Shown piece by piece: positions 1 through 29,360 of a DNA stretch of 29,360 nt; within the stretch, counting starts at the first letter, position 1; each line of letters begins with the position of its first letter. Origin of the DNA: a virus (lineage: Duplodnaviria; Caudoviricetes); IMG/VR virus record IMGVR_UViG_3300030329_003272, positions 1 through 29,360 of that record, one strand, 5' to 3'. Under the pieces are notes generated by a model, which saw only the letters and a program-made list of their open reading frames with translations, was not told where the DNA came from and did not search any database. Made by a program: the position numbers and the translations under genes.

Positions 1-697
1 TCTCATAGGACAGCTCCAGGTATTCATCAAACTTGCGCTGCACTGTGTCCCACCCGTAGTTGTCCCGGACAAAGACGGCGCGGTGATGGTCTGAGCGTAG
101 CCACCAATCCACAACCCGCAGCACATTCTCTCGCCCACCCTTCTTCCTGAGCCGAGCTTTGAGGAAACTGCGGCGCTTCTTGGTGAGAGTCAAATCACGG
201 GTGCTGCCTGTCTCCTTGCGGGCCTTGTTGATCTCGTTCCACAGGTCCGCTGCTGAATCTGACATGTCTTCTTTAGAAGACAGAGTAGAGGTGTGTTCTT
301 GTGTCTTTGTGTTCTTGTGTAGATCCGCGCGTGTGGAGGTGGGCTGGAGGTGAGTTGGAGGCGGGCTGGAGGCTGGCTCTTGTGATTTCGGTGGTTTAGG
401 TGTTGTATTCTGGATGGCGGCTGGAGGTGAGTTGGAGGCGGGCTGGAGGTGGCCTTTCCAAGCGGGCTCGTCCTTCATGGTTGCCCTGGCCTGCCAGTCA
501 CTCCATCCCCACCGCCTACAGAGGGCCGGTCTACCTGGGCGCTTCTTGCGGCCCATGCGCTCCTGGTCAGCCCACCAGCGCAGGTCCATCAGCACCGCCG
601 AACGTGGCCAAGGTTTGGGCAGCTCAATCGCGATGTTTGGCCACCAAGCCGAGTCAATAGGCAGCCAGGGCGCAACCGCGTCTTTTTTCTCTTTCAC
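1..697 (-). CDS. Phage replication initiator / replisome organizer (lambda O-like), 5' part; continues across the circular junction to 29116 (about 280 aa)
   Basis: Manual translation from GTG 697 (GGAGAGG SD upstream): VKEKKDAVAPWLPID...ALCRRWGWSDWQARATM (HTH-like, WGWS motif), a Pro/Ser/Thr linker containing DNA repeats, then LTKKRRSFLKARL...WDTVQRKFDEYL. It is in frame with ORF 29116..29304 and followed by a helicase-loader-like gene. The ORF track misses this part. Confidence 0.82.
   Translation of the reverse strand, partial: MKEKKDAVAPWLPIDSAWWPNIAIELPKPWPRSAVLMDLRWWADQERMGRKKRPGRPALCRRWGWSDWQARATMKDEPAWKGHLQPASNSPPAAIQNTTPKPPKSQEPASSPPPTHLQPTSTRADLHKNTKTQEHTSTLSSKEDMSDSAADLWNEINKARKETGSTRDLTLTKKRRSFLKARLRKKGGRENVLRVVDWWLRSDHHRAVFVRDNYGWDTVQRKFDEYLELSYE
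2..99. repeat. Terminal direct repeat, left copy (circular assembly overlap)
   Basis: Bases 2-99 are identical to 29263-29360 (98 bp). Base 1 (T) differs from 29262 (C). Confidence 0.97.
265..449. other. Putative replication origin inside the initiator gene (iterons, T-rich tandem repeat, dyad)
   Basis: TGGAGG at 334, 345, 356, 367, 422, 433, 444 (TGGATG at 411), all in 11-bp phase. A 31-bp direct repeat lies at 342-372 and 419-449, an 8-bp period TGTGTTCT-like repeat at 292-320, and an inverted repeat TGTCTTCT/AGAAGACA at 265-282. Confidence 0.7.
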
Positions 698-18973: not shown

Positions 18974-19171
18974 CTATTTGTTTCTCTTGGATTCCTCTCT
19001 GCGGTCTTTGCGAATGGCGCACTGTCGCGCCCGCTTTGCTGCCTGCTCGTGGCTCATGCCATTGGAGACAAGCTGGCCTGTCATGCGCTCGATTCCCTCA
19101 CGCCTTCCTTGCCGCTCACCAGATGACTCTGGGCGGTTCCAGGTTTCGCGGTTGCGTCTGTGATCGCTCAT
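18974..19171 (-). CDS. Small Arg-rich hypothetical protein
   Basis: ATGA overlap with the upstream gene. Confidence 0.65.
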   Translation of the reverse strand: MSDHRRNRETWNRPESSGERQGRREGIERMTGQLVSNGMSHEQAAKRARQCAIRKDRREESKRNK

Positions 19172-19389
19172 TTGTCCGCCTTCTTGGCGGGTGCCTTCTT
19201 CTTGGCTGGCGCTTTGTATCCGAGGAGCTTTGCCGCGTCGGCTGCAATCTCAGCGGCTACCTTCTTAGCTGCCTTGGTTTCTTTGCCTGTCTCGCCGGGC
19301 TGCTGTTCCAAGAGCTGCGCGTGCCTCAGCATGGCAAGAGCTCGTTTCAACACGGGCATGGCGTCCACCATTTTTTGATCGCGTGCCAT
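19168..19389 (-). CDS. Small protein with histone-like KAPAKK tail
   Basis: Ends KAPAKKKAPAKKADK. TGATG coupling. Confidence 0.7.
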   Translation of the reverse strand: MARDQKMVDAMPVLKRALAMLRHAQLLEQQPGETGKETKAAKKVAAEIAADAAKLLGYKAPAKKKAPAKKADK

Positions 19390-20081
19390 CAGTCCTCCAT
19401 CACAAAGGTGTCAACGTTCCCTTTCGGGGTGGCCTTGGCCATCTGGTTGATGATCTTCTCAAACTCTTGGTCCATCGCCTCAAGCCGAGCCTCTGCTGCC
19501 TGGGCCTTCTTCAAAAGATGGGGATTGCGGTCTGCGCGTCCATGGAGGGAGTTGGCGCGCCGTTCTGCCTTGACCTTCAGCGCCACATAGACCTCCTCGT
19601 GCATGGGCTCGATGATGCCCGAGTCACGGATAGCAGCTCTGAACTTGCGGAAGGCTTTGGCGGACTCGCTCTTGTTCCAGAGCACCTTTCCGTTAGGGAG
19701 CACGGTGGCTTCGTCGCTGAAGTCGCAGTAGTGCTTCTGGCCGGATTCGGTTTCGTAATACCGAACGTAATTCTGGTATTCGCCCAGGCGGGTGTCCTTG
19801 GGGTCAATGAAGGTTCCACCCTGCTCACTGACCCAGGCAAGCGACCGGTTGAGCTTGCGATCTGCACCCACGCCATTGACGCCGGGCTTTGCCATCACCT
19901 TGTTGAGCCGTGGCACGAACCCATGCTCATCGTCATACTCCCAGTTGGTGGGGTAGTGCGTATAGACAAACCGGTCAGCGCAGACAAAGCGCCCATTGGC
20001 TGGGAGGCCACGGCGTGCTGTGACCACCTCCTCTTCTACCTGGGGTGTGCTGAGTCTGATGGTCTTCTGGGTTCCTGACAT
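19389..20081 (-). CDS. Hypothetical protein directly downstream of the capsid (230 aa)
   Basis: CAGGAG SD and a natural-looking sequence. Family not recognised. Confidence 0.8.
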   Translation of the reverse strand: MSGTQKTIRLSTPQVEEEVVTARRGLPANGRFVCADRFVYTHYPTNWEYDDEHGFVPRLNKVMAKPGVNGVGADRKLNRSLAWVSEQGGTFIDPKDTRLGEYQNYVRYYETESGQKHYCDFSDEATVLPNGKVLWNKSESAKAFRKFRAAIRDSGIIEPMHEEVYVALKVKAERRANSLHGRADRNPHLLKKAQAAEARLEAMDQEFEKIINQMAKATPKGNVDTFVMED

Positions 20082-20165: not shown

Positions 20166-21074
20166 CTAAGCGTCAGTGATGATCTCGCATCCGCGTGCGT
20201 TCTCTGCGATAGCCACTGCGGGATAGTAGTGAGCCAGGGCTGCCGTCTCACCGTGGGTGGCGTCACGGATAAGCTCTACAAGCAACTCACCAGCATCGAG
20301 CATCACGCGGTCTGCGGGGATGTGTCCCTGCAACAGCGAGACGGGCGCTTCGGAATATGCAAAGCAGCCATCGGCAAACATGCAACCAAGACGGTTGCCG
20401 CCAGAGGTCGCCACCTGATCCGATTGCCAGAAGTTGATCCCATTCCAGGAACCCTGGAAGCCCGGACCCTTCGTGGCAAGCTGCTCCGCCGTGGCTGGGT
20501 TGAACTGCATAGCTCCGGCCTCACCTCTGAGCGAGCTACGGAAGTCGTTCATCTGAACGGGCGCAAGCACGCAGGAGTATGGACCCTGAGCAGCGTTGTC
20601 GTTGAGCGCAAATTGGGCGTCGTATATGTCGTCCACAGACAGGTCGACACCTGTAGTTCCCACGGCATCGGTGATGCTTGTGAACAGTGACGCGATCAGA
20701 TTGCTGATGGTGATGGACATACCGTTGACCAAGTTGCCAGCGAGCACCTGCAAGTCGACCGGAGAACCGGCCACAGGCACGAGATCGGTGATCTCATACT
20801 GACGGGCATACCGGGCAGCGGTCAGGGTGTATTCGCTCGTGGTGAAGACGCTATTGGAGGATGCGCTTCCCTCTGCTACAGCGGCATAGGCAGCCGGTGC
20901 GGGCAGCGATGTCACAGCCATCACGGTCGAACCACCAGCGGTCCAGGGGATGCGGGTGCAGACAGCACGAAGGTCTGTGGGATCGTAGATTTGCTCATGC
21001 ACAAGAGCTGCGAGGATTTCAGCTACCAAACCACCGTTGGAAACCAAATTAGCGGTGACGACTTCATTTGCCAT
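20166..21074 (-). CDS. Major capsid protein (HK97 fold)
   Basis: 302 aa with AAVAEG..., YTLTAARYARQYEITD, GSWNGINFWQSDQV and VELIRD. Position after portal and scaffold. AAGGAG SD. Confidence 0.88.
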   Translation of the reverse strand: MANEVVTANLVSNGGLVAEILAALVHEQIYDPTDLRAVCTRIPWTAGGSTVMAVTSLPAPAAYAAVAEGSASSNSVFTTSEYTLTAARYARQYEITDLVPVAGSPVDLQVLAGNLVNGMSITISNLIASLFTSITDAVGTTGVDLSVDDIYDAQFALNDNAAQGPYSCVLAPVQMNDFRSSLRGEAGAMQFNPATAEQLATKGPGFQGSWNGINFWQSDQVATSGGNRLGCMFADGCFAYSEAPVSLLQGHIPADRVMLDAGELLVELIRDATHGETAALAHYYPAVAIAENARGCEIITDA

Positions 21075-21079
21075 TTCGA

Positions 21080-21166
21080 CTCCTTGCCTGCACGCAAGGC
21101 AGGCGGATCACGTTTCGTTGATTGAGATCCACCTACGACTCTATCGGGGCCGGTCCCGTGGCAGAT
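21080..21166 (-). promoter_or_regulatory. Structured capsid mRNA leader with mutually exclusive pairings over the SD
   Basis: Segments 21160-21166, 21126-21136, 21099-21109, 21094-21099 and 21082-21091 are complementary in two alternative sets (see findings). Confidence 0.5.
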
Positions 21167-21172
21167 GTTCTA

Positions 21173-21202
21173 TCCGTACCGCGTTTGCCTGGGCGCTGTC
21201 AA
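21173..21202 (-). promoter_or_regulatory. Putative capsid promoter
   Basis: Perfect TTGACA, then N18, then TACGGA. Back-to-back with P2. Confidence 0.45.
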
Positions 21203-21246
21203 CACTTCCCTTGATCGGGTTTGTTTTGAAAAGGTGTTGATTGTGC

Positions 21247-21275
21247 TTGACCCCTTACCCTGTGGGTAGTATAAG
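21247..21275 (+). promoter_or_regulatory. Early promoter P2 with operator in the spacer
   Basis: TTGACC-N17-TATAAG, the same hexamers as P1 and likewise followed by AGAG. Palindrome TACCC-TGT-GGGTA at 21256-21268. Confidence 0.7.
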
Positions 21276-21298
21276 AGAGTATACCAACGAGGATCACC

Positions 21299-21772
21299 AT
21301 GACGACCACCACCCCCACCCCCCGATACTTTGCAGTAGCAGGCGGCCACTTGCACCAGGAAACCTGCGCACACCGCTCCGGCGCTTGGAACAGGCGCACG
21401 GCACAACATGGCAGATCCTTCAATGCTCACATGAGAGAGCTTGACGGCATGAGTCGCGAGGATGTGGTTGCGAAATACGGCGCAGCCTGTTGCTCACACT
21501 GCATGCCCTCCGCACCATCAGGCACCAAACTCACCCAGGCGCAGATCGAAGACCTCGACGGCACAACCGCACGCCGCGCCGCCCTGCTGAATGAGATCGA
21601 AACCATGCAGTCAGCCCACAGTGACGAACTGGACGCAGCCATCGTGGCATTTCATACGGCAGACGAGGCTGGCGACCATGAGGCAGCCGCCCCCCTGTAC
21701 CGCACCATGAAAGCACTGGTTCCTAACCGGGAGTATTCAACTCATCAGCGCTGGCAAACATTGAAATCCTAA
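21299..21772 (+). CDS. Hypothetical protein with putative His/Cys metal-binding N-domain
   Basis: GHLHQETC...ACCSHCMP followed by a helical C-terminus. GAGG SD downstream of P2. Confidence 0.75.
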   Translation: MTTTTPTPRYFAVAGGHLHQETCAHRSGAWNRRTAQHGRSFNAHMRELDGMSREDVVAKYGAACCSHCMPSAPSGTKLTQAQIEDLDGTTARRAALLNEIETMQSAHSDELDAAIVAFHTADEAGDHEAAAPLYRTMKALVPNREYSTHQRWQTLKS

Positions 21773-21780
21773 ACCACCAA

Positions 21781-21803
21781 GGGCTGGGCATCCCTCACTG
21801 CCC
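21781..21803 (+). repeat. Island repeat copy 1 (GGGCTGGGCATCCCT...TGCCC hairpin)
   Basis: 15 bp identical to 22171-22185, with a GGGCA/TGCCC stem. Confidence 0.75.
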
Positions 21804-21824
21804 ACCAACCACCAAGGAGACCCC

Positions 21825-22157
21825 ATGGCCATCATCACCCTCTCTCTTTCTTCCCTATGCGATCTTTCCCTCGACCAACTTGAACGAAACGCCTCGCGGC
21901 GGGCTCCCAAGGGCACCAACGTTTCGGAGCCGTGCGCCATCTGCCAGCGACCACTGAACGTTGAGTCACCGTCGTGCTGGGCTATCGCTACCCTTGACAT
22001 GGATGAAGCCGTCCCAGTCGCCTTGGTAGACGAGCGTGAGTTTTGCGCCGAATTTGATCAGTACTGTGAAATCGCTCGAATCGGACCCGCCTGCGCGAAG
22101 AAGTATCTGTCCAAGGATGAGCGAGACGCCTTTTTGTTTGGCCACCGCAAGGCATAG
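21825..22157 (+). CDS. Zinc-finger protein, DUF6011-like
   Basis: CAICQRPL...IGPACAKK. AAGGAG SD. Confidence 0.7.
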   Translation: MAIITLSLSSLCDLSLDQLERNASRRAPKGTNVSEPCAICQRPLNVESPSCWAIATLDMDEAVPVALVDEREFCAEFDQYCEIARIGPACAKKYLSKDERDAFLFGHRKA

Positions 22158-22170
22158 ACCACCACCCGCC

Positions 22171-22192
22171 GGGCTGGGCATCCCTTCTGCCC
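22171..22192 (+). repeat. Island repeat copy 2
   Basis: GGGCTGGGCATCCCTTCTGCCC, abutting the scaffold stop codon. Confidence 0.75.
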
Positions 22193-22848
22193 TACTTGAT
22201 GACGCCCTGAGCCCTGAGCGCGGCCATGATGTTGTCTTTCTGGTCGCCCAGGGATCCGCCATTCTTGGCTCGCACCTTGCGTATCTCATCGGCCCCGTAC
22301 TCCTTGGAGTGATGGACGGGAGGCGTACCCGTGCCTCGCTCCGGGTTGCCGTTGAGCGTATCGCGCACAGCCGCCAGAAGGGCTTCTGTTGGGTCTTGGG
22401 TCTGCTCTGGGGCGGTAGGGGTCTCGACGGGCGCACCCTGGCTTAGACGGTCAAAGTGAGGCGAGTAGAGTGGATCCTCGCGGTTGGCCTCCAGCCAGTC
22501 CGCAAAGCTGGCAGCGTTCTCGCCTGCCTCACTCGCAGCACTGGCATACTCGCGCCGCAGGAAGCGCCGGATTGATGGAGCCTTGAAACCCATCTCCACC
22601 AGATGCAGCTCTTGAGTGTGCGTGCTCTGAAGGGTGGAAAGCTCAGAGGTCACGGCCTCAAGCTGTGCCTTCATCTTTTCCATCGCCTTTTGTGCTGCGG
22701 CTGCCTGGGCCAAGGCATCGTCACGGCGTGCCCGCTCCTCGGTCAGTCGGTGGCTGGGCACGGTGGCCTCCATCTTGGTGTTGCCCATGGGTGCGCTTGC
22801 TCCGTTGGTGGTTGGTGGGGTGACTGTTGCCTGCTGTTCGTCCATCAA
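22192..22848 (-). CDS. Capsid scaffolding protein
   Basis: TVPSHRLTEE followed by a coiled coil and a Pro/Gly C-terminal linker. Follows the portal. Confidence 0.78.
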   Translation of the reverse strand: MMDEQQATVTPPTTNGASAPMGNTKMEATVPSHRLTEERARRDDALAQAAAAQKAMEKMKAQLEAVTSELSTLQSTHTQELHLVEMGFKAPSIRRFLRREYASAASEAGENAASFADWLEANREDPLYSPHFDRLSQGAPVETPTAPEQTQDPTEALLAAVRDTLNGNPERGTGTPPVHHSKEYGADEIRKVRAKNGGSLGDQKDNIMAALRAQGVIK

Positions 22849-22849
22849 T

Positions 22850-24286
22850 CTATGCCTCGATATCGGGTGTTTGGGTCATGGTGTCCTCTGTGGCCATCAA
22901 CTGAGCCTGGATGGCATCCGCCCGCAGCAGACGCTCAAGCGCGTCCTCGTCCGACTCGATAGCCGGGTTGAGCATGCGGATAGCATCGAGCCTGCTGATA
23001 AGCCCCATCTCAAGCTCTGCCTTGATGGCCTCGGTCATCTCCTTGCGCTCTGATGGCATGGGCTCCAGGGAGCGATAGGTGATCCGGTATTCGCGTGGGT
23101 CTTCTGGCAGGTTGTGCCCACCGTAGGCGTTGGCGAGCTTGGCAGCGGTTGCCAGTAGCTCTTGGTCAGCCACCCGCAGCGATGGCTCAAGCAGCTTCTG
23201 CGCCCGTCGTTGGCCTGCCCGGCTAACGACGATGGCATAGCCAGACTGCCCGCCTGTCACCTGGAGGTCTGACGGGTTGAGCCCGGCGTAGACTGCCAGC
23301 CCATGCTCGTACATGCGGAGAGCTTCAGCCGCCCGCAGTGGGTCCATCGCTGGGTTGAACTGGCCAAGGCTTCCGCCGGTCGGGCCTTTGCTGCCGAACT
23401 TCAAGATGGACTTGCGGTCAGTCGGCACCACGTCTACCTGCACGCCGCCGATCTGCCGGGTCACGCCTGCCTGGGACTCCACGTCCAACGCCCAGCGCTG
23501 AGGGTGCGAGGCAGACACAAACGCATCAGACCACTGCGACCACAGTGCTGCAAGGCGCAAGGCGCCCCGGCTGATCTCAACGCCCTCGTGCCAGTTCCAC
23601 ATGTTGGGCGTCACCCGTGCATGGTAGAGCACGTAGGGCAGGATGGGCGCACCATCCCGTGAGCGGTACGGGTACGTGCCCACGAACTCAGGCGCCCAGG
23701 TCGCCGTGGCGTCATAGGTCCGGCCCTTGCCATCAACCTCCAGAATCTGGAAGACGGGCGCCGCCGGATCGCGCACATCCCAGATCTCCCAGGTCCAGGT
23801 GCCGTCTCGATACCTGACCTCCTCCACCCTGCCCGGTATGTTGGGCTCGTTGGGCATCGGCAGAATCACCACCACGTCTGGCGAGATAGGCCGATAGCTG
23901 CACTCGGTGGCTCCCATCCAGTGCTTCCAGTCCAGACGCACCAGGGATTCCTGGATTGCGAGGGTATACAGCGCCGTCTGTTGCTGCTGTGCCCAGAGCA
24001 GTGGGGTCACAATGGGGCTTAGGTCTTCCGCGCCTTCTGAGGCAACCTCCGGCGGTTCCAGGTATGCCACGTTGAGCTGCTGGTAGATGAGGCGCAGGGC
24101 GTTGCGGGAGAGGTCCGGGTTGATGGTGATGTCTGCCGCGATCTCCTGGCTGAACATTCCCTCAATCTCATCACGCACGTCTGATAGCTGCTTCCCTGTG
24201 AGGAGCCGATAGCGCAGGCTCTGCTCCCGCCAACGGGCCTTGTCGCTTGGGTCTTTGGGCTGAATGGAGCTTGGGATGTAGAGCAT
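22850..24286 (-). CDS. Portal protein
   Basis: 478 aa between terL and scaffold. PILPYVLYH, QSGYAIVV and MGLISRLDAIRMLNP resemble SPP1 gp6-type portal motifs. Confidence 0.85.
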   Translation of the reverse strand: MLYIPSSIQPKDPSDKARWREQSLRYRLLTGKQLSDVRDEIEGMFSQEIAADITINPDLSRNALRLIYQQLNVAYLEPPEVASEGAEDLSPIVTPLLWAQQQQTALYTLAIQESLVRLDWKHWMGATECSYRPISPDVVVILPMPNEPNIPGRVEEVRYRDGTWTWEIWDVRDPAAPVFQILEVDGKGRTYDATATWAPEFVGTYPYRSRDGAPILPYVLYHARVTPNMWNWHEGVEISRGALRLAALWSQWSDAFVSASHPQRWALDVESQAGVTRQIGGVQVDVVPTDRKSILKFGSKGPTGGSLGQFNPAMDPLRAAEALRMYEHGLAVYAGLNPSDLQVTGGQSGYAIVVSRAGQRRAQKLLEPSLRVADQELLATAAKLANAYGGHNLPEDPREYRITYRSLEPMPSERKEMTEAIKAELEMGLISRLDAIRMLNPAIESDEDALERLLRADAIQAQLMATEDTMTQTPDIEA

Positions 24287-24504
24287 CAGTCAGCGTCCTG
24301 TTCGATAGGCTGGATAGGTTCCCCAGACGGCTGGTCGCATTCAGGGCAGTAGATATCTCCCACAAAGAGATGATCGCATTGCAGACATGCCCGAGGTATC
24401 TCCCTCGGTTCACCGTCTCTTGTGACCCTGCGGTAAACCGCCCGATATCCATCCTCGGCGTATAGGTGCTCAATGGTGAAATATACGGGTTGAGCGTCCA
24501 TCAT
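24286..24504 (-). CDS. Small zinc-ribbon protein
   Basis: CLQC...CPEC. Coupled to both neighbours. Confidence 0.7.
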   Translation of the reverse strand: MMDAQPVYFTIEHLYAEDGYRAVYRRVTRDGEPREIPRACLQCDHLFVGDIYCPECDQPSGEPIQPIEQDAD

Positions 24505-28562: not shown

Positions 28563-29129
28563 TCAGGAATCCTTCAACATCAGCCTGGGCGAAAACTCAA
28601 GCAACTTGGCCACCTCCTCACGGCTTGTGGTGAGCTTCTTGCGCTCCTTGTTGGCGCGGTATGCCGCCCTAAAGCTCGCACGGTTGGCGGTGTTGGAGCT
28701 TACATCCGACCGGCACAGCACCGACCATCCACCACAGGCACTGAGGCCCGCCATCATCGCGGCGTTCGTGGCTGGGTCTTCGTCAAGCTGCCAGCCTCCC
28801 TCCTTCCCCGGCGGGTCCATGTAGCCAAAGCGCCCAACGCTCTGAAGCAGAACGCCCCACTTCTCATCGGAGTCGTCTACCTGACTCAGACTTACCTGGG
28901 GCGCGTGGGCTTTCAGTTCTCCCGGTGTCGGCCAGAAGCGCTTGTCGGCGCTGAGAAAGCTCACAGCCGCTGCCATGGCGTCCTCGTCGGTCATGTCCCT
29001 GAACACCATCTGGAAGACAAGGATGGCGCTCTCCATGCGCCCTGGCTCGCTCCAGTTGGCGGGAGGCTTGAGCCCTGCCGTCTCCAGAAGGTGAAAGATG
29101 GTTTCGATGGTGGTGTCACTTGTTGCCAT
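28563..29129 (-). CDS. Putative helicase loader/inhibitor (G39P-like N-domain plus DUF6475-like C-domain)
   Basis: KRFWPTPGEL and EKWGVLLQSVGRFGY...DPATNAAM...GGWSVLC...ASFRAAY. Directly follows the initiator. Confidence 0.72.
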   Translation of the reverse strand: MATSDTTIETIFHLLETAGLKPPANWSEPGRMESAILVFQMVFRDMTDEDAMAAAVSFLSADKRFWPTPGELKAHAPQVSLSQVDDSDEKWGVLLQSVGRFGYMDPPGKEGGWQLDEDPATNAAMMAGLSACGGWSVLCRSDVSSNTANRASFRAAYRANKERKKLTTSREEVAKLLEFSPRLMLKDS

Positions 29130-29360
29130 TGGTGGTCTCTCGGCTTGGGGTGAATGGGAAGGTTACGACGTTCAGATTCTCACGCTCTCGGTTTCGTCTG
29201 GCAAGCATCTCAGTGATGCCCTCCCGCTTTGGTGTGCGGTGGTCATGCACGCGCTTGGCGTCCTCATAGGACAGCTCCAGGTATTCATCAAACTTGCGCT
29301 GCACTGTGTCCCACCCGTAGTTGTCCCGGACAAAGACGGCGCGGTGATGGTCTGAGCGTA
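29116..29360 (-). CDS. Replication initiator, 3' part
   Basis: Same frame as 1..697 through the terminal repeat. It ends ...SRETTNGNK* and overlaps the start of the next gene at 29129. Confidence 0.82.
   Translation of the reverse strand, partial: RSDHHRAVFVRDNYGWDTVQRKFDEYLELSYEDAKRVHDHRTPKREGITEMLARRNRERENLNVVTFPFTPSRETTNGNK
29263..29360. repeat. Terminal direct repeat, right copy
   Basis: Identical to bases 2-99. A reading frame continues cleanly across the join. Confidence 0.97.

Follow-up and report, generated by a model that had tools for sequence, protein, structure and literature searches.

In tailed phages, the matching and timing of capsid and scaffold synthesis are mostly ascribed to promoters. 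The mom leader of Mu carries a 5′ structure beside one that hides the ribosome-binding site (RBS); a small zinc-finger protein, Com, recognizes a GAG-N2-CC type motif in a hairpin there and so exposes the start signals of this DNA-modification gene (PMC6483171). The gene 32 leaders of T4, T2 and RB69 contain an H-type pseudoknot some 60–85 nt upstream of the start codon and a weakly structured spacer; translation is repressed when SSB cooperatively coats an A+U-rich tract that bears UUAA(A) repeats, and a 2010 review names gene 32 as possibly the sole viral pseudoknot in translational autoregulation (PMC3014915). A preprint describes translational autoregulation by the P22 scaffolding protein of its own synthesis (bioRxiv 10.1101/2022.12.13.520362). 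Riboswitches of the preQ1-I kind and other small H-type examples combine a small pseudoknot with Shine–Dalgarno (SD) accessibility logic (PMC11625349), and predicted cis-RNAs directly upstream of phage head genes include GP20-a, GP20-b and capsid-linked csRNAs (Fremin et al. 2023, PMC10690425).

The window analysed here (the whole stretch of DNA, 29,360 nt) is the record of an aquatic tailed phage with terminase, tape-measure, tail and recombination genes identified by profile searches. The leader lies upstream of a gene that the first-pass annotation took to encode the major capsid protein; the protein model (pLDDT 80.5) bears this out, with phage capsids as the best Foldseek matches (E 8e-15), and its PHROG and Pfam capsid matches are weak. 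We consider this leader to be, with a probability of about 55%, a protein-stabilized translational on-switch for capsid synthesis. Positions of its elements are collected in Table 1.

In this leader, as in that of mom, a structure at the 5′ end adjoins another that hides the RBS, and protein binding is proposed here as well; the present leader differs in that a pseudoknot sits inside a closing helix, before a major capsid gene, and the 43 window proteins contain no match to the Com or Mom families, which places it outside the Com/mom system. It shares with the gene 32 operator an H-type pseudoknot upstream of a phage start codon, a weakly structured spacer and proposed translational control, but does not belong with it: the gene encodes capsid, the leader is without UUAA(A) repeats, and there are a closing helix, alternative RBS pairings and a probably positive sign of control. 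The resemblance to preQ1-I-type riboswitches stops at pseudoknot and SD logic, as there are too few conserved bases, no Rfam match and no metabolic gene context. As in P22, a scaffolding protein could control head-gene translation; the P22 protein acts on its own synthesis, whereas the leader here is that of the capsid gene. GP20-a and GP20-b are Rfam families, neither of which the window leader matches. The 14 capsid-linked rows in the tables of Fremin et al. refer to different capsid families (HK97 Pfam, N4, Podo, PHA00201), and six motif strings and four contig identifiers had no match in the searchable supplement text; the leader may still coincide with one of the other csRNAs of that study (PMC10690425). 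Rfam 15 gave no window match at the gathering threshold and no match at E ≤ 10 over the leader, in agreement with the earlier remark that no known RNA family was recognized, and 11 related loci gave only two sub-threshold minus-strand matches. PMC-CC and bioRxiv full text, a scope that excludes subscription journals, yielded no description of the motif.

Table 1. Positions of the capsid leader elements and associated genes in the window
Feature	Position	Strand	Remarks
Small basic two-helix protein, capsid operon	18974–19171	−	Candidate ligand; helix-loop-helix model
Major capsid protein	20166–21074	−	302 aa; HK97-type fold
Shine–Dalgarno AAGGAG	21080–21085	−	5 nt before AUG (21074)
Two alternative hairpins	21082–21104	−	ON, 21104–21099 with 21091–21086; OFF, 21099–21094 with 21087–21082; 0/30 columns vary
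Segment 3, GAUCCGCCUGC	21099–21109	−	Subclade-specific competitor of segment 1; helix 2:3 has 11 bp, 2 G-U
Variable linker/loop, 16 nt	21110–21125	−	4/16 columns vary in subclade
Segment 2, GUAGGUGGAUC	21126–21136	−	Switching strand; 3′ strand of P0 (21133–21127) or 5′ strand of helix 2:3
Mini H-type pseudoknot, 23 nt	21136–21158	−	Enclosed by helix 1:2
Segment 1, AUCUGCC	21160–21166	−	5′ strand of closing helix P0; predicted pairing with start-codon region in OFF fold
−10-like hexamer TACGGA	21173–21178	−	18-nt spacer; without last T; predicted +1 at 21166
−35 box TTGACA, predicted capsid promoter	21197–21202	−	Invariant in four subclade genomes
Lineage-specific insertion	21203–22189	+	Separates capsid promoter from scaffold stop codon; carries two ORFs on the plus strand; outside switch
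Probable scaffolding protein	22192–22848	−	Candidate ligand; between predicted portal and capsid genes; weak Pfam Phage_scaffold match (E 0.0085)

The conserved core of the leader is the mini H-type pseudoknot, which the first-pass annotation overlooked although it named all of the surrounding helices. Stem S1 pairs 21158–21156 with 21147–21145, and S2 pairs 21152–21149 with 21139–21136, plus 21148–21141; loops L1 and L3 read GAC and AUA in the window. The family consensus consists of a 3-bp S1 (CGG/CCG, CGC/GCG or CGU/ACG), an L1 of 1–4 nt and an S2 of 4–7 bp and free sequence. The CG/CG of S1 is invariant and position 3 of L3 is A in 63 of 66 copies, yet the motif holds only about five near-invariant bases. 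Relatives were drawn from metagenomic and viral contig collections, and 168 loci provided 102 distinct ATG-start capsid leaders (110 with GTG allowed), from which 54 representatives at <75% identity were taken. The capsid family comprises 202 clusters at E ≤ 1e-30; matches include two short MAG contigs and one annotated phage (28% identity), in which the scaffold–capsid gene gap is only 29 nt. In a sequence-only alignment of 18 leaders selected from the window's wider clade, all 144 pseudoknot cells are paired, 19 of them with double changes, and three pairs show double changes; slid controls on the same alignment are 17–44% paired. The two interleaved stems with their compensatory changes are those of an H-type pseudoknot.

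Descriptors of the motif, composed after inspecting the leaders, match 89 of the 102 leaders, against 0–8 in 20 rounds of shuffling, 7 of 102 coding stretches and 25 on the reverse strand. The strict form finds 42/54 representatives and 0/54 on the reverse strand, with 15 matches in 247 kb of flanks; the sole intergenic one of its four matches in the window is at 21158. A DNA pattern blind to the capsid gene retrieved 25 IMG/VR stretches, 24 of them directly before a capsid homologue and the other cut by a contig end at the capsid start. In the leader of L182, a locus at 33% identity that took no part in building the descriptor, the motif is visible by eye. The exact descriptor fails in 112 distant leaders (5 matches versus 0–2 in shuffles), in which a variant with a 3-bp S2, fitted afterwards, finds 79 (10–15 shuffled) and a looser one 100 (27–40 shuffled). 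The motif or a variant is present in most leaders examined, and these comparisons, made at the level of sequence, identify a real structured leader RNA that is absent from the catalogues searched. More than one match occurs in 30/102 leaders. Tandem copies typify one clade; the leaders of L161, L149, L021 and L037 carry two or three, the last usually of the CGC/GCG form. A second, degenerate match in the window at 21105–21085 is without the L3 adenine and is of low confidence. In one distant clade (L321 and relatives), the promoter region immediately upstream of the variant pseudoknot is covered by a long inverted repeat rich in GC, about 110–70 nt ahead of the capsid start codon.

The pseudoknot module also lies in register with a predicted promoter. 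A TTGAC/TTGCG box followed by a 17–19 nt spacer and a YA-type −10 precedes it in 26/54 representatives, against one match in control stretches, and the spacer is 18 nt in 20 of the 26; the final T of the −10 is present in 11 and absent in 15. The 21173–21178 hexamer itself escapes a strict consensus promoter scan. This conserved register upholds the earlier suggestion of a TTGACA promoter with a transcript starting at about 21166; the predicted +1, placed by register, would be the first base of segment 1. Strong TTGACA boxes, mostly 18-nt spacers and a −10 without its final T may hint at the host group or at an activator.

Helix 1:2 forms a closing helix (P0) around the pseudoknot that is conserved in the family. 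In the nearest outgroup, L094, P0 is kept with G-U replaced by G-C and U-G by U-A, segment 1 and the pseudoknot are the same, and segment 3 is lacking. Shuffling of the 5′ flank gives P0 weak support (score at least 10 in 89% versus 58%), with p<0.05 in 6/51 leaders and a positive swap test in 18/51; statistical support for P0 alone is moderate. Segment 3 and the two hairpins downstream are limited to a subclade of four genomes (the window, L001, L007 and L014), and the segment-3 19-mer has matches in only four IMG/VR stretches. Within this subclade the structured blocks are invariant (0/41 and 0/30 columns vary; 71 nt, four genomes), whereas 13/51 columns vary in the spacer, −10 region, loop and post-SD positions, as do 75/104 four-fold codon sites. 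If sites are independent, 30 invariant columns at the non-helical rate have a chance near 1.5e-4. Such invariance offers no covariation, yet it fits bases that would be obliged to pair in two folds.

Segments 1–3, the CCUUGC/GCAAGG and GCCUGC/GCAGGC pairs and the SD all lie on the minus strand where the first-pass annotation placed them. Its OFF fold contains the proposed helices, but C21099 was counted in both 2:3 and the SD hairpin; the OFF state therefore has 10+6 or 11+5 bp. In isolation, helix 1:2 is predicted at −5.2 kcal/mol, helix 2:3 at −18.2, the SD hairpin at −10.1 and the ON hairpin at −10.6. When the 3′ region is shuffled, none of 300 permutations equals the 2:3 duplex, scored there at −19.9 kcal/mol (p=0.003). 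Overall stability is unexceptional, with z of −0.23 for 151 nt and −1.7 for the 92-nt leader. The two folds exclude each other, as had been proposed, with different predicted access to the RBS. The GAGUCG repeat that had also been pointed out is incidental: its SD copy varies in all three close relatives, and its first copy is the 3′ strand of the pseudoknot.

Energies were computed with ViennaRNA with the pseudoknot held, its own energy lying outside the score. The window is then predicted at −35.4 kcal/mol in the OFF fold and −23.8 in the 1:2 state, so one fold dominates at equilibrium, an outcome that the earlier proposal had regarded as counting against a switch. The gap of 11.6 kcal/mol means that these folds are not near in energy; it is 9.7–12.2 across the subclade and 0–2 kcal/mol in 20 of 22 other-clade leaders tested. 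In this model the gap exceeds what equilibrium binding could bridge, and control in the window must therefore be kinetic or ligand-driven. Opening SD through AUG would cost 10.7 kcal/mol in the OFF fold versus 3.5 with 1:2 held, a drop of 7.2 that was reached by 0/200 shuffles of 21125–21086. Even so, the 1:2 state is predicted to free the SD only in part, its six bases being unpaired with probabilities of 0.84, 0.84, 0.09, 0.08, 0.37 and 0.36. The pairing of freed segment 1 with the start-codon region, predicted in the OFF fold, lies within 1 kcal/mol of P0 in L094. Folding at increasing length predicts 1:2 at 92–95% up to 21106 and 2:3 at 100% from 21100. A drop of at least 2 kcal/mol with 1:2 held is found in 6 of 26 leaders with a usable P0, and four of these six are the subclade. 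Two leaders that appeared by eye to carry the same relay (L109 and L003) show drops of only 0.6 and 1.0 kcal/mol and were rejected.

Alternative pairings that would hide the RBS extend well beyond this subclade. A downstream rival of the strand that follows the knot is significant (p<0.05) in 14/51 representatives versus 1/51 for a control strand, three representatives having been dropped for short 3′ regions. Duplexes between the module and its own RBS reach p<0.05 in 15/54 (controls 6/54), and in a swap test the own RBS comes within the best 10% of exchanged RBSs in 17/54 (controls 5/54). Replacing the module by a shuffled one is predicted to make the SD easier to open in 41/54 leaders; the window is flat in this test (8.3 versus 8.6), where the tested interval included the 3′ arm of the ON hairpin. 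The hiding strand differs by clade, being the 3′ strand of P0, the 5′ strand of S1 or S1′-L3-S2, and module:RBS pairing extends to 14 contiguous pairs in L142. For the tandem clade, 19 sequences share an anti-SD helix that is 91% paired; three of its pairs carry double changes, most of which go back to a single divergence of two subclades. Of the three alternative-pairing tests, one or more are passed by 32/54 representatives, across all large clades on a quick tree of 53 capsids, and none by 22/54. The representatives are kin, so these counts overstate the independent evidence. In held-out clades the duplex test replicates (12/39 versus 2/38), the swap test is weak (9/39 versus 6/38) and a 2:3-type rival is not enriched (2/39). 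RBS-hiding alternatives are enriched in the family, with strands other than those first proposed for the window and more weakly in the held-out clades, and the 2:3/SD-hairpin relay is restricted to the subclade. A translational switch is likely, because bases of the pseudoknot module are also predicted to refold and bury the RBS; its relay form would be local to the window's subclade.

We propose that, as the RNA emerges, the 5′ module (helix 1:2 around the mini pseudoknot) would be the first part to fold, and that a factor bound to it would preserve this fold for as long as the SD needs to stay open. Unbound RNA would relax to the much more stable 2:3 fold, with SD and start codon buried. The naked full-length RNA is predicted to be OFF and the gene needs heavy translation, so the ON state would be reached only if 1:2 lasts until the ON hairpin traps segment 3, by co-transcriptional capture, probably by a protein. 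Comparison of sequences among relatives establishes the predicted pseudoknot and its constant position ahead of the capsid start and behind the promoter; it likewise shows that the 3′ platform is constrained and that RBS-hiding alternatives are in excess. That control is kinetic and the ligand a protein we infer. The sign of control would be activation, because the OFF helix in several clades uses pseudoknot strands, so that a binder of the knot would favour ON there; we assume the same sign for the window. Few invariant bases, a fixed shape and tandem copies would suit a protein better than a metabolite.

Two phage proteins are candidate ligands. The scaffold gene is found in 91/97 loci. The small basic protein is found in 38/54 representatives (12 of the 16 misses end too early) and in 72/87 long distant loci, and has no Pfam family and no significant fold match. 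Its family (47–65 aa, 102 database relatives) is near-universal in the phage group, 1.5–2.0 kb after the capsid start. Co-occurrence of the motif with either protein is confounded by shared ancestry. Our judgement on the ligand is divided between the free scaffolding protein (35%), the small basic hairpin protein (30%), the host ribosome or S1 (20%) and others (15%). More tentatively, and with appreciable doubt, a widespread aquatic tailed-phage group may meter its capsid through this RNA switch, in which free scaffold or a dedicated 47–65 aa basic helical hairpin protein would bind a mini-pseudoknot aptamer and turn capsid translation on; as in riboswitches, the aptamer would have been kept and the RBS-hiding platform rebuilt many times. 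If free scaffold were the activator, capsid output would be matched to scaffold supply. Kept ahead of the capsid gene in a large family, such a 23-nt pseudoknot would define a new RNA family. With its natural single, tandem and relay versions, it would allow translational control of virion assembly to be tested directly, suggest a role for a family of small proteins that has no annotation and offer synthetic biology a compact protein-responsive part.

Several other readings would account for parts of these observations. The module could act without a ligand, stabilizing the 5′ end and timing the folding: its paired 5′ bases, together with the pseudoknot, would protect the capsid mRNA and keep a G-poor spacer open while ribosomes load co-transcriptionally, and the later OFF fold would only cap output per message. 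P0 does begin close to the predicted +1 in many leaders, the spacer has a median G fraction of 5% (49 leaders), and P0 is dominant in many leaders with no clear OFF state. A stabilizer, however, needs no fixed 3-bp S1 with invariant CG/CG, no L3 adenine (63/66) and no internal tandem copies, and stability alone leaves the excess anti-RBS pairing unexplained; we regard it as unlikely. We give less credence to negative autoregulation, in which a late protein, capsid or the small basic one, would bind the leader or chaperone the exchange from 1:2 to 2:3 and stop translation as T4 gp32 does. The window pseudoknot persists in the OFF fold, the small basic gene shares an operon with capsid, and the gene 32 pseudoknot nucleates repression (PMC3014915). 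Against this, binding of the knot would oppose OFF in the several clades whose OFF helix uses pseudoknot strands, and the naked window RNA is already predicted to be OFF.

The position of the module at the extreme 5′ end of a transcript that would run about 17 kb through tail and lysis genes would also suit an antiterminator which, like put of HK022, acts from the nascent RNA and alters RNA polymerase for transcription of the long late operon. HK022 put binds RNA polymerase and suppresses downstream terminators; it consists of two stem-loops, not a mini pseudoknot. Such an element would leave the RBS complementarity unexplained, the leader has no terminator-like site (no intrinsic terminator or attenuator hairpin with a U-tract occurs within 21075–21202), and we find this reading improbable. 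It is, if anything, a little harder to credit that the pseudoknot serves as the aptamer of a riboswitch for a small molecule or an ion. Riboswitch-like traits are the compactness of the H-type fold, its occurrence in tandem and the interchangeability of the expression platforms, but the S2 sequence is free, the motif precedes only one structural gene family, and neither many invariant contact nucleotides nor ligand-related genes are found. Antisense-RNA or temperature control we consider very improbable indeed. The exposed 16-nt loop could be a toehold for an antisense RNA, the kind of control that had been entertained at first; this loop is the variable part of the leader, and a genome scan for a partner gave only one exact 11-mer and two 15-mers with two mismatches, all coding. 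The RBS fold is not predicted to melt as in a thermometer, the OFF–ON gap staying at 11.4–12.0 kcal/mol between 4 and 37 °C.

Other features of the locus lie outside the leader. In relatives, the distance from the upstream stop codon to the pseudoknot has a median of 40 nt and is ≤80 nt in 87/92; in the window an insertion of ~1 kb separates the scaffold gene from the capsid promoter. Its ORFs (21299–21772 and 21825–22157) both match L013 only, a divergent TTGACC-17-TATAAG promoter-like site lies near 21247–21275, and an identical 15-nt repeat (21781–21795 and 22171–22185) forms a small hairpin behind each ORF, so that the insertion looks like a cassette array. The insert carried by L014 is a different one; its flanks are shared. 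Directly behind the capsid gene, a 230-aa protein (19389–20081, minus strand) is present in 75/97 loci and gave no match in the family and Atlas searches. A 72-aa CxxC..CxxC protein (24286–24504, minus strand), between terminase and predicted portal genes, is matched in only three loci, many loci ending before that position. An exact prefix/suffix repeat between the record ends was not found; the peptide that ends ORF 2–709 reappears at the start of ORF 29116–29358 (window 1–110 and about 29260–29358), which suggests that the record ends overlap within a replication-initiator-like gene.
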